A stretch of 33,593 nucleotides of DNA from IMG/VR virus record IMGVR_UViG_3300017782_000093; one strand, given 5' to 3'. The notes under the pieces were generated by a model. It worked only from the letters and a program-made list of their open reading frames with translations, was not told the origin of the DNA and searched no databases. Source of the stretch: a virus. The position numbers and the translations under genes were made by a program. Below are positions 190 through 33,593 of the stretch, piece by piece; positions within the stretch are counted from its first letter, which is position 1; every line of letters begins with the position of its first letter.

Positions 190-202
190 GTTCGGCTACA
201 GG

Positions 203-228
203 TTTGGAATAGCGATACCAAAAAATCC
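203..228. repeat. Left copy of inverted repeat TTTGG-R-ATAGCGATACCAAAAAATCC
   Basis: 209-228 is the perfect reverse complement of 1986-2005 (20/20). The match extends to 26 nt with one mismatch. The site is intergenic, downstream of terS. Confidence 0.9.
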
Positions 229-656: not shown

Positions 657-708
657 ATATCAGGTGCTGTTAAAAAAGTCAACATACCTAATTGCGTATG
701 ACGGGATT

Positions 709-767: not shown

Positions 768-800
768 ACATACTCTTTATTATATAATTGTTTATAATTT

Positions 801-821
801 TACGGGGGTTGCGACCCCGTA
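801..821. other. GC-rich hairpin TACGGGG-GTTGCGA-CCCCGTA
   Basis: A 7-bp perfect stem with a 7-nt loop, conspicuous in an AT-rich genome. No flanking T-run on either strand. Confidence 0.5.
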
Positions 822-910
822 CGCCGCCCTTTATATGTGGAAGCCTTTTTCTTCAAAAGCTCCACACCTCCCCATAAGCCTTTAACGGACAAAGAAATGA
901 TATGTAATAG

Positions 911-1169
911 AAATTTACCTAAGGGTGGTGGCTATCGTAAGCTATTTTATTTTCCAAATCTGTAGTCATTTCGGTGCTTCGCACATTTGTCTTTCAAGGG
1001 CAGACGGCCCTCAACAACAATAGTCCTTCTGCCTTCCCCCCAAGTAGGTGGGTAAGTCATTCATTCGCGAAACTCACGATTGTTGTTGAACAGATTTAGA
1101 AAACAAAATAGCCAACTATCGCTCACCCCCCTCAGGGAAATTTCGCTGGAGGGTGAGTGAAAATGACTT
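911..1169 (+). promoter_or_regulatory. Candidate structured RNA leader / long imperfect inverted repeat (unclassified) upstream of CDS 1191..1682
   Basis: 911-963 pairs with 1090-1143 (44 Watson-Crick pairs over 53 positions, one bulge at 1123). There is an internal perfect 11-bp helix 1011-1021/1079-1089. The alternative hairpin 1122-1131/1148-1157 (9/10) reuses the 3' arm. 1161-1169 is complementary to both 964-971 and 1054-1061. Confidence 0.5.
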
Positions 1170-1190
1170 GATGTCGTAGGATAAAATAAA

Positions 1191-1682
1191 ATGACAAAAC
1201 AACTATTTAAATATAAAAAAATCGTTTACACTCCAGAACAGTTTGAAGAAACTGTAAAGGCTGTTAGACCATTAGTTGATTTATTATTTCAACTTACGCC
1301 ATCAACTAAGAATAAAAATTGGTCAACTTCACATAGTGCTTGTGCAGGTTTGGGCAATCTTGTTCTTGGTGCTTTAAGAAATTCCAATAAAAAAACATTG
1401 TATTGGGAAAAAGTAAGAGGTAATTCTGATCCATCGTTTTCAACAGATGAAAAAGGTGAAAATGAATATCTCGTCGCTTGTAAGAATTATAAATGGAATA
1501 TAAACAATTCTATTGATCTTACATTGATTGATCAGCTAATGACTCACGCAGTCGAAAGCTGTATTGAAAACTTACATATCCAAAAAAATTCTGTTTCTAA
1601 GGATAAGACACCCGAGCAAGTTGTTGCCGAAGAAAAAGAACTGGATAAAGAATATAAAAAAATAGTAAACTTCGATATATAA
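1191..1682 (+). CDS. Hypothetical protein (orphan, moron-like unit)
   Basis: 163-aa ORF with an ATG start, followed 37 nt later by an intrinsic terminator. I recognised no family motif. Confidence 0.7.
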   Translation: MTKQLFKYKKIVYTPEQFEETVKAVRPLVDLLFQLTPSTKNKNWSTSHSACAGLGNLVLGALRNSNKKTLYWEKVRGNSDPSFSTDEKGENEYLVACKNYKWNINNSIDLTLIDQLMTHAVESCIENLHIQKNSVSKDKTPEQVVAEEKELDKEYKKIVNFDI

Positions 1683-1718
1683 ACTTAAAACAAAAATCGG
1701 CATCGAGTCAGCTAAAAG

Positions 1719-1747
1719 GGAGATTGGTAACAGTCTCCTTTTTTTTT
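1719..1747 (+). terminator. Rho-independent terminator
   Basis: Stem GGAGATT (1719-1725)/AGTCTCC (1732-1738, one G-U pair), loop GGTAAC, followed by T9 (1739-1747). Confidence 0.8.
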
Positions 1748-1805
1748 GTATAAAAAAATTTTTTTTTCGCTACACTTCGTTCCGCTAACTTTATTGGAGA
1801 ACATT

Positions 1806-1970
1806 ATGAATAAAACTATCATCATTACATTGCTACTACATCTAATCTTAATTCCATTTGCAGTATATTATCTTCCAACCTTTAATGGTTTATCCTTAAT
1901 GTTATGTTGTGTATGGATTGTTGATTGTTGGTTACTCATAGAATATTGTTATTGGCGCTTACGTCAGTAA
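1806..1970 (+). CDS. Small hydrophobic membrane protein (two predicted TM segments)
   Basis: Internal ATG at 1806, preceded by GGAG (1796-1799). The sequence MNKTIIITLLLHLILIPFAVYYLP...LMLCCVWIVDCWLLIEY is strongly hydrophobic. The upstream extension to 1746 runs through the terminator T-run. Confidence 0.5.
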   Translation: MNKTIIITLLLHLILIPFAVYYLPTFNGLSLMLCCVWIVDCWLLIEYCYWRLRQ

Positions 1971-1985
1971 CAATCTTCAAGTAGT

Positions 1986-2011
1986 GGATTTTTTGGTATC
2001 GCTATCCCAAA
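1986..2011. repeat. Right copy of the inverted repeat (GGATTTTTTGGTATCGCTAT-Y-CCAAA)
   Basis: Reverse complement of 203-228 (20/20 core). Intergenic, upstream of the 2150 operon. Confidence 0.9.
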
Positions 2012-2054
2012 ATTAAAACACTATGCACTATCATCACTATTCCTCATTATGTAT

Positions 2055-2101
2055 CCATATGACTATACAAGATTTCCTTCCCCACAAGTGTAGTCATATG
2101 G
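2055..2101 (+). promoter_or_regulatory. Hairpin with CCTTCCCC-CAAGT loop
   Basis: 11-bp perfect stem CCATATGACTA (2055-2065)/TAGTCATATGG (2091-2101). The loop carries CCTTCCCCACAAGTG (2076-2090), a near copy of 1032-1046. Confidence 0.5.
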
Positions 2102-2149
2102 TTGCATTGTATGTGTAATCAGTAATAGACAATAAACAAAGGAGTAATT

Positions 2150-2470
2150 ATGTCTAAATATCTAAAAACAGATGAACAACAACATCATTATGAAGCTGAA
2201 GTTCACCAACGTAGAATGCACGAACTCAATCGTGTAAACACATTTAGAACTATGTCAAATGAATATCAAGATGTCATACAATCAAAATATTCTGACGATC
2301 TAATATCTCATAATAAGTTTCATTTGGCTATGCATTACTATGGTGTGATGGAGCACTTAACACACGTATGCTTACTTGAAATAGAAAACAAGTTGTATGC
2401 ACCTGAGTACGAAGAGCGTATGAAAGAAATTGCTCACGCTGTAGATGAACTAGAAAAAATTGCTAAGTAA
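2150..2470 (+). CDS. Hypothetical protein
   Basis: 106-aa ORF. Strong SD context AACAAAGGAGTAATTATG (2135-2152). Confidence 0.75.
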   Translation: MSKYLKTDEQQHHYEAEVHQRRMHELNRVNTFRTMSNEYQDVIQSKYSDDLISHNKFHLAMHYYGVMEHLTHVCLLEIENKLYAPEYEERMKEIAHAVDELEKIAK

Positions 2471-2500
2471 CAATACACAGCATAAAGGAGGTGATATGTA

Positions 2501-2764
2501 TTGGCTATAGAAGCACTTGAAGAACGCTATGAGTGGGAGGATAATATGGAACTCTACTCATTGCAGTACCTAATCAAATGTGAATACGAAATGAAAGTAA
2601 TCAACAAATGTATAGGTGCAATCGAAGTGGCGTTGGATTCATGCGAGAGTAAACAGCTTTCGCAAAGTAATTTTGAACACATCACCACTTCTCTCGTCAT
2701 ACTTAAAGAACAAGCAAAGGGACTAGCTGATCTTTTACGAAAGGAAAAGTATGATGTAATATAA
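2501..2764 (+). CDS. Hypothetical protein (TTG start; alternative ATG at 2546)
   Basis: 87-aa ORF. AAAGGAGGTG (2485-2494) lies 6 nt upstream of the TTG. Confidence 0.6.
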   Translation: MAIEALEERYEWEDNMELYSLQYLIKCEYEMKVINKCIGAIEVALDSCESKQLSQSNFEHITTSLVILKEQAKGLADLLRKEKYDVI

Positions 2765-2798
2765 TAATATAAATCTAATAAAAAACAAAGGAGTAATT

Positions 2799-3656
2799 AT
2801 GTTAGATGTATTAAAAGACTACGAGTTTCCAACAGAAATGGTGGAGCTTGAAGCACTAAACAGGACAGATAATTTTGGTAATCAGAACTATGCTGTTCCA
2901 ACTGATATGGCAAGAGCCTGTGTGCGTACTGATACCGGACAAGTTCTTGGTATTCACGGAAGTAAATACAAACCAATATCACACAAAGATGTTGTAGATA
3001 GAGTAATGGAGGGTGTTGAAAAGACAGGCTTCACTAACTACAGCACTAAGATACAAGTGCACGAGGCAGGTGCGAAAATGCGTGGGTCTGTTACCTTCAA
3101 TGATTTGGTAGTTGAACCACAGAAAGATGATATCATAAAATTTCGTATCAACTTCTTCAATTCATATGACCAATCGTGGGCATTTGCTACAATATGTGAT
3201 GGCTTACGCTTATGGTGTATGAATGGTTGTACTACACCTGTCAATGCTTCTACTTTACGATTCAAACATACAACAAATGTAAACATTCAAAGTATTACAG
3301 ATCGTGTAAAGACAGGTGTTGATTTCTTTATGGACTCTAGTATGGACTATGCTCAATGGGCACATATCAAGTTACATCCACATTCTGTGCAAAGATTTTT
3401 AGAACAAACTGTAGCTAAAACATTCAAGCGTTCTTCTAACTCAATACCATTCAATGTAACAAGAACTGAAACATTACTTGCAGGTTTTGATCGTGAGACA
3501 CGAACACTTGGTAGAACTAAATGGGCGTTATACAATGCTCTTACTTATTGGTCTACTCATACTGACGGAGAACGTGGACACGCTATTCGTAAACGCAGAG
3601 AAGATGAAGTAGCTAAAGCACTTGGTTCAAAACAATGGCAAGAACTTGTTGCATAG
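2799..3656 (+). CDS. DUF932/DUF945-like phage/plasmid protein
   Basis: 285 aa. The N-terminal pattern ..VRTDTGQVLGIHGSKYKPISHKDVVD.. and overall length are typical of the DUF932 family. It has the same 18-nt SD/start context as 2150. Confidence 0.65.
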   Translation: MLDVLKDYEFPTEMVELEALNRTDNFGNQNYAVPTDMARACVRTDTGQVLGIHGSKYKPISHKDVVDRVMEGVEKTGFTNYSTKIQVHEAGAKMRGSVTFNDLVVEPQKDDIIKFRINFFNSYDQSWAFATICDGLRLWCMNGCTTPVNASTLRFKHTTNVNIQSITDRVKTGVDFFMDSSMDYAQWAHIKLHPHSVQRFLEQTVAKTFKRSSNSIPFNVTRTETLLAGFDRETRTLGRTKWALYNALTYWSTHTDGERGHAIRKRREDEVAKALGSKQWQELVA

Positions 3657-3698
3657 TAGAATATAAATAGTATAATAGTAGTACGAAAGGAAGATGTT

Positions 3699-3860
3699 AT
3701 GGAATATAATGACACCGAAGTTACAGCAAGACTAGGTGAATCTGAATGCATTAATGAGTTTAGATTTGCTGTAAAACCACTATTAAATAAATTAACAGAC
3801 AAACAATTTCAAGATGTAACTCAAGAGTTATGGAATGAATATTGGTCTGAACATATATAG
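3699..3860 (+). CDS. Small hypothetical protein (53 aa, not in the ORF track)
   Basis: Hand translation gives MEYNDTEVTARLGESECINEFRFAVKPLLNKLTDKQFQDVTQELWNEYWSEHI*. GAAAGGAAG lies upstream. It fills an otherwise empty gap. Confidence 0.45.
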   Translation: MEYNDTEVTARLGESECINEFRFAVKPLLNKLTDKQFQDVTQELWNEYWSEHI

Positions 3861-3963
3861 AATCAACTGTAAGGTTTATTGTTGTACCTTATATTGATTA
3901 GGTTTGGGCGTACCTAGTTATGAGCAAACGCCCACATTAATCCATTAAACAAAGGAGTAAATT

Positions 3964-4329
3964 ATGGATATGCATTTTGACCGTCAAACATTAAAGTTTG
4001 GCAAATCAACTAACACGTGTGAGTTTATTGACTTTCACCTTGATAACCCAAGAGTTTGGGATCTGTACCTATCGTTTGCTACAGATATGGCTCAGCTTGG
4101 ACATAAAAGATTATCAAGTGAAATGCTTATTAATCGTGTTCGTTGGGAAACTATAATTGATACTACTGATAAACAGTTCAAGATAAATAACAACCACAAA
4201 CCTTTTTATGCAAGGCTTCTCTTGTCTTTACCACGATTTAAAAATACAAAGTTCCTCGAGGTTAGACAAAGTTGTGCTGATGACTTATCATATTCCGAGT
4301 GTGAAATACTGCTCAGTAAATATGTATAA
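3964..4329 (+). CDS. Hypothetical protein
   Basis: 121-aa ORF with SD AACAAAGGAGTAAATTATG. Confidence 0.75.
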   Translation: MDMHFDRQTLKFGKSTNTCEFIDFHLDNPRVWDLYLSFATDMAQLGHKRLSSEMLINRVRWETIIDTTDKQFKINNNHKPFYARLLLSLPRFKNTKFLEVRQSCADDLSYSECEILLSKYV

Positions 4330-4804
4330 AGTTATATTGCAAGACCTACAGACAAGGCGGCAACATCTTGGTATATCATCTCAAGAAGTATCTGAAAAGA
4401 TTGGTGTATCGGATAGCCTTGTTTCATTATGGGAATGTGGAAAGAAACAACCAAGTATGATTAACTTTATTAATTGGTGTAGTGTACTCGGTTTCAATCT
4501 TATTCTTAATGTTCATCAACAACAAATACCAAAGTCGTTTGTTCCTAGTTACGATACTAAGCAATGGATCATATCAGAGTTTGGAGAAAGGTATAATTAT
4601 GACAACGAACTTAAAATCTTTATCAACCATTATCGGGCAGGTGGAACAGTTAAATCAGATTGGCAATACGCTTTCCGATCTTGGTTACTCCGTGCCAAAA
4701 AATTCACGACCAATACAACTCAAACCTCCGAAGGTACTAAAGAACGCCGTGAACGAATCAACAATGTCTTTGCTATCAGCAATCAAAGAGAGCCAAGTAG
4801 ATGA
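4322..4804 (+). CDS. XRE-type helix-turn-helix DNA-binding protein with C-terminal extension
   Basis: The internal ATG at 4322 overlaps the stop of the preceding gene. LQTRRQHLGISSQEVSEKIGVSDSLVSLWECGKKQPSMINFINW is a classic HTH_3/XRE motif. The C-terminal ..SDWQYAFRSWLLRAKKF is reminiscent of DnaT-like/replisome-organiser tails (weak). Confidence 0.7.
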   Translation: MYKVILQDLQTRRQHLGISSQEVSEKIGVSDSLVSLWECGKKQPSMINFINWCSVLGFNLILNVHQQQIPKSFVPSYDTKQWIISEFGERYNYDNELKIFINHYRAGGTVKSDWQYAFRSWLLRAKKFTTNTTQTSEGTKERRERINNVFAISNQREPSR

Positions 4805-5204
4805 GTATATATCTACAGAAAACAAAGCAGTACAATATTTAGATTGTCTACGCAGAACATTGAAAATTTGTCAACATATGATGTTACCTGCAGATCCTAA
4901 ATATATTGGCACAGCAATAGAAATGTGTGCATCAACTTTCGGGTGTGATGTGCCTAACGAACTTGGGCTTAAGATGTATGGACAAATCTTAGCCAAGTAT
5001 CCCCAATGTGTTATTGAAGAATATACATTGGAATTAATAAAAACCTATAAGTATAGAAGATTGCCTGTACCTGCAGACTTTCTAGCTATCTATGAACCAC
5101 CTTACGAACACGGAATGTTGTTCATAGAAAATACTTATTTAAAAACAAGAAGGTTTGCAAATATAGTACAAGAGTGCTATAAAATAGATACGAAAGGAGT
5201 ATAA
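4599..5204 (+). CDS. Hypothetical protein (start uncertain: 4599 or 4764)
   Basis: ATG 4599 follows GGAGAAAGG but gives a 206-nt out-of-frame overlap with 4322..4804. ATG 4764 gives a 41-nt overlap. Confidence 0.6.
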   Translation: MTTNLKSLSTIIGQVEQLNQIGNTLSDLGYSVPKNSRPIQLKPPKVLKNAVNESTMSLLSAIKESQVDEYISTENKAVQYLDCLRRTLKICQHMMLPADPKYIGTAIEMCASTFGCDVPNELGLKMYGQILAKYPQCVIEEYTLELIKTYKYRRLPVPADFLAIYEPPYEHGMLFIENTYLKTRRFANIVQECYKIDTKGV

Positions 5205-5205
5205 T

Positions 5206-6015
5206 ATGCAACCAAAGAAAAAAGTAGAACGACCTAAAACTATTGGTGGTTCAGATGCTACACGCATTATGGAAGGTGATTGGCACACACTCTGGCTAGA
5301 GAAGACAGGGCGTCAAGAACCTGCTAACTTAGATCGGGTGTTACCTGTTCAGATCGGCATTGTTACAGAAAAACTTAACAAGCATTGGTTTTGGCAGGAA
5401 ACAGGACATAAACTATTATCACATAGGGTGCAACACGATTTCACAGATGGATTCCGGCACGCTAGTCTTGATGGTATAGCAAATGTTAGTGACAAATTTT
5501 GTGTCCTAGAGTGTAAGCATACCAATGCCAACAACACTTTAGAAAATGTTATACGAAAATATATGCCTCAGCTACAACATTATATGCAAGTTGCAATGAT
5601 GGATAGAGCGTACCTCTCAGTAATTTTTGGTAATATGAGATACGAATGGTGTGAAATACAATTAGATAATGAATATGTAAAAATGTTATATGAAATGGAA
5701 TCAACCTTTTGGAATGAACACGTAATTAAAGATAAAGAACCAGAAAAATTAAAAGCAGAAAAATTAATACAAGATTTAACAGATACAATAAAAGTAAACG
5801 ATATGATTCGTATTGATATGGATACTAACAATGAGTTTGTAGCTAATGCACATACTTGGCGTGAAACAAAAATATCATACGATCAACACCGAGCAGTTGG
5901 TAAGGTATTAAAAGAACTAATACCTGCCAACTGTCGTCTTGCTGAAGGTGCAGGTATTAAAATATCAAGAACAAAAGCAGGACATTTAACCATCAAAGAA
6001 AACAAAGGAGGTTAA
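5206..6015 (+). CDS. YqaJ-like / lambda-Exo-type recombination exonuclease (PD-(D/E)XK)
   Basis: The motifs IGGSDATRIMEG..W..LWLEKTG, ASLDGI and VLECKH match the YqaJ viral recombinase signature. Confidence 0.85.
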   Translation: MQPKKKVERPKTIGGSDATRIMEGDWHTLWLEKTGRQEPANLDRVLPVQIGIVTEKLNKHWFWQETGHKLLSHRVQHDFTDGFRHASLDGIANVSDKFCVLECKHTNANNTLENVIRKYMPQLQHYMQVAMMDRAYLSVIFGNMRYEWCEIQLDNEYVKMLYEMESTFWNEHVIKDKEPEKLKAEKLIQDLTDTIKVNDMIRIDMDTNNEFVANAHTWRETKISYDQHRAVGKVLKELIPANCRLAEGAGIKISRTKAGHLTIKENKGG

Positions 6016-6016
6016 T

Positions 6017-6604
6017 ATGATGGGACACATTGAACCAAGAGTAAAGAAAATACTACAACAGTATGATCTAAAACCCGAACACGCATTGTGGGAACTCAAA
6101 CGTGGAGGTAAAGCAACACTTGTAATGCTACACAAATACTGTGAACTTGTAGGAGCTAAAGCAGGTATTGTTATTGATGACATTGTAGAAGTAGAAACAA
6201 ACTCTGCACAAGGTATTGCAGTAGTTAAATGCTATGCACACAATGACAAAATGAAAGTCATTACCTACGGAGAAGCTAGTCCAAAAAATAGTAAGGTTGC
6301 CTATCCATATGCAATGGCAGAAAAACGTGCAGTAGACAGAGCAATACTAAAACTTGTTGGATTGCATGGCTTTGTATATTCAGAAGATGAACTTGACACA
6401 AGTAATGAGAAGTTAGGTTCAGCAGATGATGATGCAATCAAATCATTTATTAGTAACATCGAAGGGAGTAAAACTGTTAAGCAGGTTACAGGTTACTTTG
6501 AAATGAACAAGGTAAACATAGCTAAAGCTAAGAAGTCCAATCCCGGATTGTATCAAATGGCAATAGCTAAATATGAATCTAAACGAAAGGAATTAAATGT
6601 ATAA
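6017..6604 (+). CDS. Putative single-strand annealing protein (Rad52/Sak-like)
   Basis: It sits between the exonuclease and SSB. GEASPKN...YPYAMAEKRAVDRAILKLVGL resembles the G-[DE]-A ... A-x-x-R-A-x-x-R-A-l motif of Rad52-type phage SSAPs. Confidence 0.55.
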   Translation: MMGHIEPRVKKILQQYDLKPEHALWELKRGGKATLVMLHKYCELVGAKAGIVIDDIVEVETNSAQGIAVVKCYAHNDKMKVITYGEASPKNSKVAYPYAMAEKRAVDRAILKLVGLHGFVYSEDELDTSNEKLGSADDDAIKSFISNIEGSKTVKQVTGYFEMNKVNIAKAKKSNPGLYQMAIAKYESKRKELNV

Positions 6605-7022
6605 CAAGATTCAAATCATTGGTAATCTTGGTGCTGACCCCGAAGTAAAACAAACGGGGGCAGGCACTAACTACGCCATCTTGTCTGTAGCTACAAACAG
6701 AGTAGTGAAGGGCGAAAAAGAAACTGAATGGCACAAGTGTGTCGTTTGGGACGATAAAATAGCAGACATCTTAGCCAAATATACTAAGAAAGGAAGCAGA
6801 GTTTTATTGGAGGGAAGACTAACATATAGAAAATGGCAGACAGATACAGGAGAAGAAAGAGTAAAAGCAGAGATACACCTTGATAGGTTTAACTCTGAAA
6901 TGAAACTTATGGATTCTAAGTCTGACAGCAATGTTTCAACTATTACATCACCTACTGCAAACCAAACAGTACCAAGTGACGTAGAGGCGGGACCTATTAT
7001 TGAAGATGATGTGCCATACTAA
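6597..7022 (+). CDS. ssb: Single-stranded DNA-binding protein
   Basis: OB-fold signature MYNKIQIIGNLGADPEV...TEWHKCVVW...KKGSRVLLEGRL..RKW, plus the acidic C-terminal tail IIEDDVPY. Confidence 0.92.
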   Translation: MYNKIQIIGNLGADPEVKQTGAGTNYAILSVATNRVVKGEKETEWHKCVVWDDKIADILAKYTKKGSRVLLEGRLTYRKWQTDTGEERVKAEIHLDRFNSEMKLMDSKSDSNVSTITSPTANQTVPSDVEAGPIIEDDVPY

Positions 7023-7237
7023 TGTTTAAAATATTTATAGTAACACTATGGATAGAGTATCAAGGCAAACTTTGGGTTAAGTATGCCTTGCCACTCCAAG
7101 GTAGATGTGATGTTGTTACTTGGTGGGGAGTCCAAGAACAATATAAACATTCACCTATCAATATTGTAGCAATGAAATGTACACGAGTAAAAGATTTTAA
7201 ATTAGATCGGAGGATATATAATTATGACAAAAAATGA
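7022..7237 (+). CDS. Possible small hypothetical protein
   Basis: 71-aa ORF with a TAATG overlap on the ssb stop. No motif recognised. It could instead be non-coding spacer. Confidence 0.3.
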   Translation: MFKIFIVTLWIEYQGKLWVKYALPLQGRCDVVTWWGVQEQYKHSPINIVAMKCTRVKDFKLDRRIYNYDKK

Positions 7238-7421
7238 ATCACGTGTTTATAAATTTGTTGATGACTTTATTAGTATGTATAAATTTAGTCCATCATACAA
7301 AGAAATAGCAGAACAGCTTAACTTTGCCTCACCCTCACAAGCACACAAAATATGTATGCAGTTGGTAAAGAAAGGTAAATTAACAAAAGGCGAGGGTGCC
7401 AGAAACTTGGAGATATTATGA
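7224..7421 (+). CDS. LexA N-terminal DNA-binding domain-only protein (winged helix)
   Basis: SPSYKEIAEQLNFASPSQAHKICMQLVKKGKLTKGEGARNLEIL aligns by eye with E. coli LexA [42 protein letters not shown]. At 65 aa it has no S24 peptidase domain or cleavage site. Confidence 0.7.
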   Translation: MTKNESRVYKFVDDFISMYKFSPSYKEIAEQLNFASPSQAHKICMQLVKKGKLTKGEGARNLEIL

Positions 7422-7603
7422 AAAAGAAAACGCAAACACAACACTTAATAGCACAACTATATTGGGATCATGAGCGATTAAGCACGGCAGGGCAAAAAAC
7501 TCTCAACGACTTAGCTAGATTATGGGATGTACCTACAGAAGAAGATATGGTAAACGGACATTCAAATGACCTACCATCAGATGTGGAGCCAACCAATGGG
7601 TAG
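7418..7603 (+). CDS. Hypothetical protein
   Basis: 61-aa ORF. ATGA overlap with the preceding stop. Confidence 0.55.
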   Translation: MKKKTQTQHLIAQLYWDHERLSTAGQKTLNDLARLWDVPTEEDMVNGHSNDLPSDVEPTNG

Positions 7604-7976
7604 ATTTAGCAAGAAAAAAGGATACAGAGTTGAGAACCAAATTGTAAATCAAATCAAAGCATATGGAATACAAGCAAGACGACAACCAATGAGTGGAGCA
7701 ATACCAGATTTTCCATATGATATTGAGATACGCAAAGAACCATTTCACAAATTAAGTGTAGAAGTTAAAGCACGAGCAAACGGCGAAGGATTCAAAACCC
7801 TCGAGCGTTGGAAAGACAATGCGGATCTTTTGTGCCTACATAGAGATAGAGCAGACACACTTGTTTGCTTGAATTTAGAATTGTTTTTGGATATACTTTC
7901 GATCACAGATGATACAATATATGAACAACAAGAATCAACTCGTAGACGTAAACGGAAATCCACTAAAAGATCATAA
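7596..7976 (+). CDS. Hjc-like Holliday junction resolvase / PD-(D/E)XK nuclease
   Basis: KKGYRVENQIVNQIKAYGIQARRQPMSG...DIEI....LSVEVKAR fits the G..ER......G....R...SG...D(I/L)......(E)VK pattern of archaeal-type resolvases. The start is taken at ATG 7596, which overlaps the upstream stop. Confidence 0.6.
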   Translation: MGRFSKKKGYRVENQIVNQIKAYGIQARRQPMSGAIPDFPYDIEIRKEPFHKLSVEVKARANGEGFKTLERWKDNADLLCLHRDRADTLVCLNLELFLDILSITDDTIYEQQESTRRRKRKSTKRS

Positions 7977-33153: not shown

Positions 33154-33471
33154 TTATTTCTTACCTTTCTTTTTTTTATTTTTTAATCGTATAGACATTG
33201 CTTTAGCTTTTGTACGAGCATCTGCTTTACTCGAGGCACCCCACGCTCTTAATGACAAAAGTAAACGAGTAGGTCTTCCTTTACTATCTCTCTCAGGTCC
33301 GGGCATATTACCCATCCGTGCTAAAAAAGATGCTCTTCGTGGATTATCGCCAGACTTAACAGGTGCTTTTAATGTACCACCCGTTTGTGCTTTATAAGAA
33401 GCACGACCCTTTGCATTCAATCCACCTTTAGGATTCTTACCTGCCTTTCTTTGCCACGCAGGAGAGGGCAC
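33154..33471 (-). CDS. Small basic protein (conserved W-RK-GKN..GGLN.KGR motif), GTG start
   Basis: 105 aa. PAWQRKAGKNPKGGLNAKGR...RRASFLARM....KGRPTRLLLSLRAW. The frame stays open upstream through the repeat, but no ATG occurs before the stop at 233-235 when the genome is read as a circle. Confidence 0.6.
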   Translation of the reverse strand: MPSPAWQRKAGKNPKGGLNAKGRASYKAQTGGTLKAPVKSGDNPRRASFLARMGNMPGPERDSKGRPTRLLLSLRAWGASSKADARTKAKAMSIRLKNKKKKGKK

Positions 33472-33593
33472 TAAAACAATACCCAGATCAAAGTAGTTAC
33501 TATTAGATATGTTATCATAACAGAACCTTAACAGAAAAAAAAAAAAATTACAATAGCGACATCGAACCTTAAACGATTCTAACGAGTGAGTAA
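33471..33593. repeat. Direct terminal repeat, right copy
   Basis: Identical to 1-123. It begins at the first base of the GTG start of CDS 33154..33471. Confidence 0.97.

Follow-up and report, generated by a model that had tools for sequence, protein, structure and literature searches.

A self-pairing element conserved by compensatory change between the early and late genes of a SAR11-type marine podovirus

The locus and its genes

The window, i.e. the whole stretch of DNA analysed here (IMGVR_UViG_3300017782_000093, 33,593 nucleotides), is a complete podovirus genome of about 33.5 kb from an uncultured SAR11-type marine phage, and its assembly is closed by a 123-bp overlap between the window ends. 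The nearest cultured relative is Pelagibacter phage Hodr. The replication and recombination set is lambdoid, comprising an HTH/DnaT-like initiator, a YqaJ exonuclease, an SSB and RusA; terS and terL are both encoded, and an RT and a transposase are absent. Early and late genes diverge from a non-coding region of about 530 nt, the largest in this streamlined genome, which holds a self-pairing element of 235 bases. The neighbours of this element are the packaging gene terS and an orphan, ORF1191, the first of the early genes.

The intergenic region is strongly mosaic, even between phages whose terS genes are 89-98% identical. It found no match by blastn against 50,697 phage records, a tRNA/tmRNA search of it gave none, and literature searches yielded nothing about Hodr, nor about hairpins or palindromes of pelagiphages. 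The features of the locus are the following; variants of the region in related phages are designated by L numbers, and the window type by WIN.

789..870, plus strand: upstream conserved blocks, namely TATAAT (790-795), a GC hairpin (804-822), a CTTTATAT box, a hairpin at 838-870, and CTCCCCATAAGCC
910..930, plus strand: 5' strand of the basal helix P1a, with near-invariant ATTTACCTRA; SD-like (TAAGGGTGGTG); inverted repeat of 21 nt, 86%
931..963, plus strand: 5' side of an internal loop (GCTATCGTAAGC), then 5' strand of the distal helix P1b; inverted repeat
973..986, plus strand: unpaired junction motif GGTGCTTCGCACAT, present in 10 of 11 variants and single-copy in the window
998..1010, plus strand: P3 hairpin, GGGC-AGACG-GCCC; its RGACR loop is conserved and its 4-bp stem covaries
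1011..1089, plus strand: inner module, in which helix P4 (1011-1021/1079-1089) surrounds tip hairpin P5 and a conserved junction, TCATTCATTCGCGAAACTC (1057-1075); inverted repeat
1032..1047, plus strand: C-run motif CCTTCCCCCCAAGTAG at the P5 tip, common to the centres of Hodr-clade palindromes and the loop of hairpin 2049-2107
1090..1122, plus strand: 3' strand of P1b and 3' side of the internal loop (CCAACTATCGC), with three plus-strand A.C mismatches that would be G.U on the minus strand
1119..1144, plus strand: 3' strand of P1a, including segment 2, a C-rich anti-SD-like CTCACCCCCCTC; inverted repeats
1148..1160, plus strand: segment 3, SD-like GGAGGGTGAGTGA (GAAGGAGGTGAG in L003), alternative partner of segment 2; 85% complementary inverted repeat
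1163..1179, plus strand: overlapping mini-ORFs ATG ACT TGA (1163-1171) and ATG TCG TAG (1171-1179), then a weak SD, TAGGAT (1177-1182); a sequence pattern
1191..1682, plus strand: ORF1191, first early gene, encoding an orphan helical protein of 163 aa with a conserved N-terminus
1714..1743, plus strand: intrinsic terminator with a T9 run, end of the ORF1191 transcription unit, with compensatory changes in L231 and L244
2049..2107, plus strand: second early-region hairpin, with AUUUCCUUCC in its loop, 43 nt upstream of ORF2150

Anatomy and folding of the element

A previous reading made from the sequence alone (hereafter the sequence-only reading) had paired 911-963 with 1090-1143 at 44 of 53 positions, and these arms are indeed complementary: a strand-neutral realignment gives 45 Watson-Crick pairs plus four A.C over 54 aligned positions, with one bulged T. 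An inverted-repeat finder resolves the arms into 931-963/1090-1122 (33 nt, 82% complementary) and 910-930/1124-1144 (21 nt, 86%). It also detects 1011-1024/1076-1089 (14 nt, 93%), which includes a perfect 11-bp helix, and 1119-1131/1148-1160 (13 nt, 85%), a helix that competes with the closing stem. The other inner helices of the sequence-only reading, i.e. the GGGC/GCCC hairpin (998-1010) and a C6/G-rich hairpin, are recovered in minimum-energy folds, so that all of them lie where it had placed them. P1a has about 20 bp and P1b about 22-23 bp; the latter is broken by three plus-strand A.C mismatches in the WIN type and is perfect or nearly perfect in L097, L111 and L018.

The real fold is better than those of shuffled controls on either strand. 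Folded as RNA, 880-1190 reaches -87.8 kcal/mol (z = -3.4) on the plus strand and -100.8 kcal/mol (z = -6.4) on the minus strand, and none of 100 shuffles was as low in either case. Under DNA parameters, 905-1150 gives z values of -7.1 and -9.0 (0 of 200 shuffles).

Rfam 15 gave no hits over the whole window at the gathering threshold, and its best permissive match in 650-1300 was RsaOG (25 bits vs a gathering threshold of 50, E = 0.12) at 696-835, outside the element; the sequence-only reading had likewise recognised no known RNA family. Several other identities were considered and rejected. N4-type hairpin promoters read by a virion RNA polymerase do not fit, since the large proteins of the virion resemble the internal or tail proteins of T7. 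A genome terminus, cos site or telomere was discarded because the assembly closes elsewhere, the arms are imperfect and there is no early gene of protelomerase size. A retron msr/msd, an omega/reRNA, a bridge RNA and a phi29 pRNA were set aside for want of an RT, TnpB/IscB or IS110 recombinase partner and because terS is present.

Variants and covariation

The element is characterised by ATTTACCTRA..TCAGGGAAAT. Eleven sequence variants were found in all, every one at this locus and oriented alike; a pattern scan of metagenomes contributed just one variant. Each arm is complementary to its own partner at 0.79-0.84 of positions, vs 0.54-0.70 to other arm types. RNAalifold detects compensatory changes at 19 of 63 pairs. 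In the well-aligned helices 93% of cells are paired and double changes affect 8 pairs and 24 cells, a tally that is reached by none of 500 shuffles, slid controls giving at most 2. This covariation in related intergenic regions, as well as the comparison with shuffled controls, bears out the structure proposed by the sequence-only reading.

Compensatory changes are seen in P1a, P3, P4 and P5. For instance, double changes occur in 4 of 17 P1a pairs and in 2 of the 4 pairs of P3, whose cells are all paired (GGGC, CGGC, GGCC, AGGC), and the distal pairs of P4 covary as CAAT/ATTG, CTAATTT/AAATTAG, TTAATT/AATTAA and TTATTTT/AAAATAA. Asymmetric features persist between variants as well: the A.G mismatch of P1a is kept in 9 of 11 and the bulged T in most. 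The core is built of modules: the P4/P5 module is missing from L009, the L005 type has an extra hairpin and lacks P3, the P5 of L018 differs, and the same inner module is nested inside another outer stem in L006. The junction motif GGTGCTTCGCACAT also occurs twice in an unrelated intergenic region of L029.

The element is a genuine nucleic-acid structure under selection, conserved through compensating mutations. Because it evolves in this way and lies at the early/late divergence site, it is very likely a control element.

The C-run motif is present in two copies in the window, vs 0.03 expected. The loop motif of hairpin 2049-2107 is pyrimidine-rich and the same as in the element, and the stem of this second hairpin covaries: L231 retains the loop on an entirely different stem, and three one-sided changes between WIN and L244 each turn a G.U into a Watson-Crick pair on the plus strand. 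In six Hodr-clade loci the plus strand carries TTCCCCC..AAGTAGGT or ..AAAGGT no more than about 8 nt from the centre of the palindrome.

ORF1191 and transcription signals

ORF1191 deserves the name of orphan gene that the sequence-only reading gave it. Its homologues form only seven clusters among 5.8 billion proteins, it had no match in Pfam, PHROG or PADLOC, and its AF2 model (helical, mean pLDDT 67) matched nothing in PDB or BFVD. The conservation of its N-terminus implies that the mRNA must begin upstream of about 1150, spanning 1191 and the upstream SD.

The conserved blocks at 789..870 are candidate plus-strand promoter and leader parts. The window has a -10-like TATAAT at 790-795, the loop of the GC hairpin at 804-822 is TTGACA in four relatives, and TTGAAA-18-TATAAT upstream of P1 in L003/L082 has a consensus score of 11/12. 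Weak terminator-like hairpins are also predicted in this region, and all of its blocks are missing from L244, L018 and L111. No promoter conserved across variants was found within the element; a candidate at 1084-1112, TTGAAC-17-TAGCCA, was rejected because L097, L005 and L111 lack it, as judged by reading. The conserved mini-ORF block can alternatively be read as a promoter, TTGACN-17-TAAAAT, that overlaps the mini-ORFs.

In the clade of L002, L004, L006 and L008 a GC-rich hairpin of the terminator type, with a covarying stem and followed by TTTTTGG on the plus strand, lies between terS and the long hairpin. It argues for rightward transcription entering the region, the scan tool having scored it on the opposite, terS-direction strand only. 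The terS promoter is sigma-70-like and conserved and adjoins terS, as a GGTATGTTGAC box in the WIN clade and as TTGACA-17-TATACT in the Hodr clade. The 3' arm of the corresponding long hairpin in other clades either reaches over both the RBS and the start (by -23 to -165 nt) of the first early ORF or stops 41-56 nt upstream of it.

A proposed translational leader

The sequence-only reading had noted that 1122-1131 can pair with 1148-1157 instead of closing the stem, and this competing helix holds up in the comparison. The segment 2/segment 3 duplex has an energy of -22.1 kcal/mol vs a shuffle mean of -11.2 (0 of 500 shuffles), it outdoes shuffles in five of eight variants, and it shows compensatory changes, from CTCACCC/GGGTGAG to CTCACTC/GAGTGAG in L015 and to CTGTC/GACAG in L097/L009. 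The locus has one of the marks of a translational SD-sequestering leader, an SD-like site able to pair with an upstream anti-SD, in a pairing conserved among relatives. Other pairings and functions suggested for the region fared less well. The complementarity of 1161-1169 to the AGTCATT copies at 964-971 and 1054-1061 is true in this genome and is treated as chance, since L003 and L015 lack one or both copies. A 22-codon mini-ORF starting at 897 and covering the 5' arm does have its ATG and frame; it is not conserved, the ATG being missing from L015, L003, L005 and other relatives, and its supposed role over the 5' arm is unsupported. A transcription attenuator does not suit the sequence, as the segment 2/3 hairpin is followed by GAAAATGACTTG, without a U-tract, and no terminator is predicted in 900-1190. 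Neither does a metabolite riboswitch, given a modular and variable core and a P1 of about 54 bp that is not short or marginal.

The mini-ORFs at 1163-1179 were compared in the seven variants that have ORF1191 with this spacer. In six of the seven, the only variable sites are the start codon (A/T), the wobble base of the Thr codon and the stop (G/A), a restriction that points to plus-strand translation. In L015 the first mini-ORF stays open until it overlaps the main start as ATGA.

When the 5' arm is deleted computationally, segment 3 becomes less likely to be unpaired in every one of the 11 variants, its probability falling for instance from 0.53 to 0.09 in L015 and from 0.51 to 0.19 in L005. 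In 10 of the 11 variants, formation of P1 is favoured by 10-30 kcal/mol over the state in which the 5' arm is free, which excludes a balanced thermodynamic switch.

Our preferred reading, to which we tentatively assign a probability of about 0.45, is that the element is the structured plus-strand 5' leader of the ORF1191 unit and controls its translation. The early unit would consist of the leader, ORF1191 and the terminator at 1714-1743. In the leader, a closing stem of about 54 bp (P1a, internal loop, P1b) encloses P3, P4 and P5 with its C-run. Segment 2 (CUCACCCCCCUC, the C-rich 3' strand of P1a) would choose between the purine-rich 5' strand of P1a, which would serve as an anti-anti-SD (910..930), and segment 3 (GGAGGGUGAG), which sits 6-10 nt before AUG ACU UGA / AUG UCG UAG, just upstream of ORF1191. 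In the ON state P1a would be closed and segment 3 free, and ribosomes would load, translate the start-stop ORFs and pass to ORF1191. In the OFF state, with the 5' arm absent, cut or held open, segment 2 would capture segment 3 and loading would fall. Since P1 is far more stable than the alternative in most variants, the default would be ON, and shut-off would then presumably need an active event. Cleavage of P1b by RNase III or another RNase specific for double strands would be the most likely event; alternatively, a factor might bind the conserved core or the loops. We infer that the leader transcript starts upstream of 910, and the coupled translation and the trigger are inferred in the same way.

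Alternative explanations

Some observations do not fit the leader model well. The transition mismatches of P1 are mostly A.C on the plus strand (about 11-13 events vs 2 firm and up to 4 doubtful G.T), and in 5 of 6 variants the minus strand has the more stable fold; the A.C excess may be a mutational bias, and in L005-type variants the wobble bias is reversed. The promoter upstream of P1 is a consensus match only, in blocks that three variants lack. In sister clades there are palindromes of up to about 480 bp with the same C-run motif at the centre, whose arms of about 240 nt run some 150 nt into coding sequence; such arms exceed the needs of any leader hairpin, and some predicted early promoters are located inside or downstream of them. 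These giant palindromes add weight to the main rival explanation, possible if doubtful, that the element acts as DNA and forms a hairpin or cruciform in the middle of the control region from which early and late genes diverge. Candidate roles are a replication origin, a minus-strand single-strand initiation signal and a symmetric regulatory platform for the two divergent promoters; the asymmetric core (GC hairpin, TCAAC helix and C-run motif) would be the recognised site, the arms needing only self-complementarity. An imperfect palindrome with arms of 100-240 nt is indeed present here in most terS relatives, its sequence being lineage-specific and its arms co-varying. The Hodr-clade arms take in the terS promoter (TTGACA-17-TATACT, 11/12) on one side and the RBS with about 48 codons of the first early ORF on the other, and TTCCCCC is central in them and at the P5 tip in the window. 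A DNA function is also consistent with P1 mismatches that favour the minus strand, DNA-parameter z values of -7 to -9, the concentration here of three of the six C5+ and G5+ runs in the genome, and lambdoid replication and recombination genes that come without a recognisable origin. The cumulative GC skew has its minimum near the region; this turn coincides with the switch in gene orientation and is therefore not independent evidence for an origin. The minus-strand complement of the junction motif includes GCGAAGC, which Hirao et al. reportedly described in the early 1990s as an unusually stable DNA mini-hairpin at phage and viral origins; we take the minus strand of the conserved GCTTCGC to be this mini-hairpin sequence, as a lead only. 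However, the searches turned up neither DnaA boxes nor iterons nor an AT-rich unwinding element, the intergenic region has no tandem repeats, as a theta-type origin might, and no conserved DnaA box was seen on reading the sequences. Moreover, a loop of at least 126 nt makes cruciform extrusion from duplex unlikely. A DNA origin also leaves unexplained the conserved competing helix with its SD-like segment, the mini-ORF pattern, the fixed spacing of 41-56 nt to the first ORF, and the shared loop motif and plus-strand G.U pairs of the second hairpin. The stem measures 54 bp here and up to about 240 bp in Hodr-like phages, whose arms recruit promoter and coding sequence. A broader reading, which we regard as rather unlikely, is that the functional unit is the core (GC hairpin, TCAAC helix, C-run/AAGTAGG motif), which would have to be displayed at the end of a long stem whose sequence is free as long as it is self-complementary. 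The whole would be an undescribed phage element that acts as single-stranded nucleic acid and is common to an abundant group of SAR11 phages. Examples would be a transcription-primed origin, a single-strand replication origin, or an RNA with a structural or regulatory part in the early/late switch.

The better fold of the opposite strand (-98.6 kcal/mol vs -80.3 on the plus strand in WIN), where the A.C mismatches of P1 turn into G.U, would also suit an RNA read from the minus strand, whether as a long leader of the late (terS) operon or as an independent non-coding RNA towards terS. We consider such an RNA distinctly improbable: promoter prediction gave none pointing leftward between 1145 and about 1300, the conserved terS promoter lies downstream of the element on that strand, and the wobble bias of the L005 type is opposite. 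It is improbable, too, that the long arms are by-products of recurrent inverted duplication, through template switching or gene conversion, with only small pieces such as promoters and the RBS being functional. This would account for the 5' arm of the Hodr clade, which copies the 5' end of the early ORF in inverted and truncated form with RBS and ATG included, and for an intergenic region that is mosaic even between phages with closely similar terS, and the phage has recombination proteins of its own. However, P3, P4 and P5 covary while their loops stay conserved, the competing helix and the spacing are conserved, and gene conversion would erase the A.G mismatch and the bulged T, both of which persist. 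The MITE-like mobile palindromic insert that the sequence-only reading offered as an alternative is effectively refuted. Terminal inverted repeats are present, and the inner module appears in another outer stem in L006, but the element is single-copy in the genome, all homologues share locus and orientation, and scans of IMG/VR and metagenomes gave no other context among the matches listed. There is no target-site duplication, and the pairing of the stem ends covaries, with no fixed terminal repeat.

If the element is an RNA leader, it would represent a new, uncatalogued cis-regulatory family in which a very long closing helix acts as anti-anti-SD and start-stop mini-ORFs provide coupling; if it is a DNA element, it would be a pointer to the origin or switch of this phage group. 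Hodr, which is cultured on HTCC1062, has an analogous palindrome, so the question is open to experiment.

Comparison with known systems

Among DNA elements, the plasmid ssoA, Frpo/ssi and the G4/phiX complementary-strand origins are hairpins of 150-300 nt. They share with the element a long imperfect hairpin, a structure kept without sequence, orientation dependence and loop motifs. Here, however, the phage is a dsDNA podovirus without a known ssDNA stage, the strand bias is no more than suggestive, and no rolling-circle Rep protein or nick site was identified in the window phage. HSV-1 oriL/oriS and the SV40 core origin are also palindromes placed exactly between divergent early and late units. 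They are near-perfect and 27-144 bp long, with AT-rich centres and initiator-binding sites, whereas the centre here is a GC-punctuated asymmetric core.

Among RNA leaders, the add adenine riboswitch and the SD/anti-SD/anti-anti-SD leaders share the three-segment layout, in which the 3' strand of the closing helix is anti-SD-like and has two partners. Unlike the add riboswitch, the element has no conserved ligand-binding core, and its P1 is about ten times longer than in riboswitches and far more stable than the alternative helix. In addition, the controlled SD serves start-stop mini-ORFs and, directly, the main gene only in L097/L009, which sets it apart from those leaders.

The lambda N-leader hairpin, which is cut by RNase III, and early T7 sites of this enzyme like R0.3 likewise belong to phages in which host RNA polymerase reads the early genes. 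They are related to the element neither in sequence nor through Rfam; the closing stem of about 54 bp, the 126-nt multi-helix core and the conserved loops are particular to the element, in which cleavage by RNase III is only proposed. Nevertheless, these sites are also long irregular hairpins in the leader of the first early gene, with their structure coupled to RBS accessibility, and T7 likewise has a second, similar hairpin in the next early intergenic region.

Genome and Setting of the Element

The first 123 bp of the window recur exactly at its other end (1-123 = 33471-33593), so the assembly is closed and the genome, of about 33,470 bp, is complete; an overlap of this length is compatible with the k-1 overlap of an assembler and does not establish a physical terminal repeat. 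A run of 13 A (A13) is present at 64-76. The G+C content is 34%; among cultured phages, the Pelagibacter phage EXVC031P Hodr is nearest (amino-acid identity of 78% for the portal and 69% for terS). Minus-strand genes include terS (656-267), terL, a T7-type portal, the major capsid protein, tail tube proteins and an internal virion protein. On the plus-strand arm (1191-7976), the orphan gene ORF1191 is accompanied by DUF932, an HTH/DnaT-like initiator, a YqaJ exonuclease, SSB and RusA. No phage DNA polymerase or RNA polymerase was found among the window's genes. Two plus-strand ORFs, 4208-4804 (HTH plus DnaT-like replication initiator) and 4482-5204, share about 320 nt; the latter has no family match except a weak, probably chance, Cas11f-like PADLOC match (E = 7e-4).

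From a 534-nt gap (657-1190), the late arm runs leftward and the early arm rightward. The element within it is organized as follows (plus-strand coordinates).

910-930/1124-1144: P1a, basal helix of about 20 bp; A.G mismatch kept in 9/11 variants, bulged T in most
931-963/1090-1122: internal loop after P1a, then distal helix P1b, about 22 bp
Core junction: carries GGTGCTTCGCNCAT
998-1010: P3 hairpin, RGACR loop; stem varies (GGGC, CGGC, GGCC or AGGC)
1011-1021/1079-1089: P4 helix, TCAACAA.../...TTGTTGA; distal pairs covary
Tip: P5 hairpin with a C-run
Second core junction: TTCNTCGCG
1119-1131: segment 2, C-rich 3' strand of P1a
1148-1160: segment 3

Pairing and Its Conservation

The sequence-only reading had described a self-complementary element with mutually exclusive pairings, and this observation is confirmed. 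A repeat finder recovers both parts of the long stem, 931-963/1090-1122 (82%) and 910-930/1124-1144 (86%), as well as 1011-1024/1076-1089 (93%) and, as the competing helix, 1119-1131/1148-1160 (85%). Folding of 880-1190 as RNA is clearly better than shuffled controls, with -87.8 kcal/mol (z = -3.4) for the plus strand and -100.8 kcal/mol (z = -6.4) for the minus strand; DNA parameters give z = -7.1 and -9.0. An Rfam search returned no family match for the element, in agreement with the statement that it belongs to no recognized RNA family.

IMG/VR contains more than 597 terS relatives; ORF1191 homologues amount to just 7 protein clusters in all. BLAST searches, scans for motifs and inspection of contigs brought together 11 distinct element variants: the window's own copy and those of the related viral loci L015, L003, L097, L009, L111, L018, L005, L231, L241 and L244. 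All lie upstream of terS, in one orientation and directly before the first early ORF, which belongs to the ORF1191 family in nine of them and is an unrelated 179-aa ORF in L097 and L009. The complementarity of each 5' arm is 0.79-0.84 to its own 3' arm vs. 0.54-0.70 to arms of other types. RNAalifold detects compensatory changes in 19 of 63 pairs; when only helices with a reliable alignment are counted, 93% of cells are paired and 8 pairs (24 cells) show double changes, values reached by none of 500 shuffles (slid controls, at most 2). Thus, the pairing is under selection, since arms fit their own partners and compensatory changes exceed those of shuffles.

Competing Helix and ORF1191

Segment 2 (CTCACCCCCCTC) is complementary both to the 5' strand of P1a and to segment 3 (GGAGGGTGAG; GAAGGAGGTGAG in L003), which looks like a strong Shine-Dalgarno (SD) sequence. 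The competing-helix layout of the earlier RNA reading is supported: the segment 2/segment 3 duplex is better than shuffles in 5/8 variants, and the partners change in step (CTCACTC/GAGTGAG in L015; CTGTC/GACAG in L097/L009). The attenuator, the riboswitch and the role given to a 22-codon ORF were not sustained. Removal of the 5' arm in silico lowers the computed accessibility of segment 3 in all 11 variants. In every variant except the window's own copy, the P1 state is the more stable one by 10-30 kcal/mol; a switch, if there is one, would thus have to be driven and could not be a balanced one.

Downstream of segment 3, two overlapping mini-ORFs (1163-1179) follow the pattern (A/T)TG ACN T(G/A)A overlapping ATG TCG TA(G/A), with GGAT(A)AA and the start of ORF1191 after them. 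Seven variants have this spacer, and in 6 of them variation is limited to the first start-codon base, the wobble base and the middle stop base. L015 has lost the first mini-ORF stop, and its small ORF runs on until it overlaps the main start as ATGA; in L097/L009 there is no gap between segment 3 and the main SD (TAGGAG).

Strong sigma-70-like matches (up to 11/12), in which the last bases of the -10 hexamer fall on the first early ORF's start codon (TAAAATG/TATAATG), occur in two unrelated sequence clades (window 1163-1192; L082 1386-1414; L008 3604-3575; L006 3672-3643). They are either real internal promoters or by-products of the AT-richness of regions where translation starts.

RNA Leader or Other Readings

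We tentatively read the element, with a probability of about 0.45, as a leader on the plus strand that controls how ribosomes load for ORF1191. In its favour are the mini-ORF pattern, promoter-like boxes upstream of P1, the lack of a conserved promoter inside the element and a terminator after ORF1191, whose conserved N-terminus implies that the mRNA starts upstream of about 1150. A second early-region hairpin (2049-2107), 43 nt before ORF2150, also counts toward plus-strand RNA. Its loop, AAGATTTCCTTCCCCACAA on a 19-bp stem, carries the pyrimidine motif of the element's tip (AUUUCCUUCC; 2 copies vs. 0.03 expected). L231 keeps this loop on a different, covarying stem, and the three one-sided changes between the window and L244 all convert G.U to Watson-Crick pairs on the plus strand. 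Pairing of the loop sequence UUCCUU with the SD AAGGAG is conceivable. Similarly counted is a GC-rich, terminator-type hairpin between terS and the long hairpin in the L002/L004/L006/L008 clade, with a covarying stem followed by TTTTTGG on the plus strand, which a terminator scan scored on the terS-direction strand only. Three small hairpins precede it, and the set, at ~40-175 upstream of terS, resembles a ~130-nt plus-strand small-RNA or leader unit.

Against plus-strand RNA, the transition mismatches of P1 on that strand are about 11-13 A.C vs. 2 firm G.T, the minus strand folds better in 5/6 variants, and L244, L018 and L111 have no upstream promoter-like blocks. The main rival, somewhat less probable than the leader, is a DNA or ssDNA element, origin-like or serving as a symmetric control platform. 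That the long arms are a by-product of inverted duplication is improbable, and a minus-strand RNA slightly more so. The MITE-like insert once proposed is very improbable, since the element is single-copy in the window and all variants share locus and orientation.

Other Features of the Divergent Region

A 22/23-nt inverted repeat, GGATTTTTTGGTATCGCTAT(T/C)CC, is present at 200-224 (minus) and 1985-2008 (plus); its 16-nt core has 2 copies vs. 0 expected. The copies lie just past the stops of terS and ORF1806-1970, so that the pair brackets the whole divergent control module. On the minus strand, the box GGTATGTTGACT is conserved (window 657-690 and 644-656), and the second ATG of terS (M4) lies 6 nt beyond TTGACT-17-TATATG, an arrangement that suggests a leaderless terS mRNA starting at M4 and not at the annotated ATG at 656. 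A Y-shaped hairpin of ~90 nt (690-775; perfect 11-bp stem, 707-717/751-761) forms an insert that separates the terS box from the remaining intergenic region and is common to L029 only; its sub-threshold RsaOG match (25 bits, E = 0.12) was taken as chance. At 804-822, a GC-clamped hairpin with loop TTGCGA (TTGACA in L015, L009, L097 and L231) is followed after 17 nt by a conserved CTTTATAT box, and this region could be a promoter with its -35 element in the hairpin loop.

Giant Palindromes in Sister Clades

Most other terS relatives carry a large imperfect palindrome upstream of terS. In the Hodr clade its arms are ~240 nt long, with 85-90% of positions complementary (giant palindromes of this size: L083 [Hodr] 3017-3484; L022-L028, L031, L032, L034, L041 and L043). 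The 5' arm repeats, inverted and truncated, the RBS and opening codons of the early ORF and has the terS promoter (TTGACA-17-TATACT, 11/12) embedded in it, and the other arm holds the RBS and ~48 codons of that ORF; elsewhere, the 3' arm covers the first ORF's start or stops 41-56 nt before it. Arms diverge between lineages yet change together (Hodr vs. L023). Within ~8 nt of the palindrome centre, the plus strand bears the motif of the window's P5 tip (TTCCCCCTGAAGTAGGT in L024/L026/L028; TTCCCCCTAAAGGT in L025/L027/L031; TTCCCCCCAAGTAGGT in the window). Given this shared motif and layout, the window's element seems to be one version of a more general scheme, in which a long self-complementary stem appears to carry an asymmetric core at its tip.
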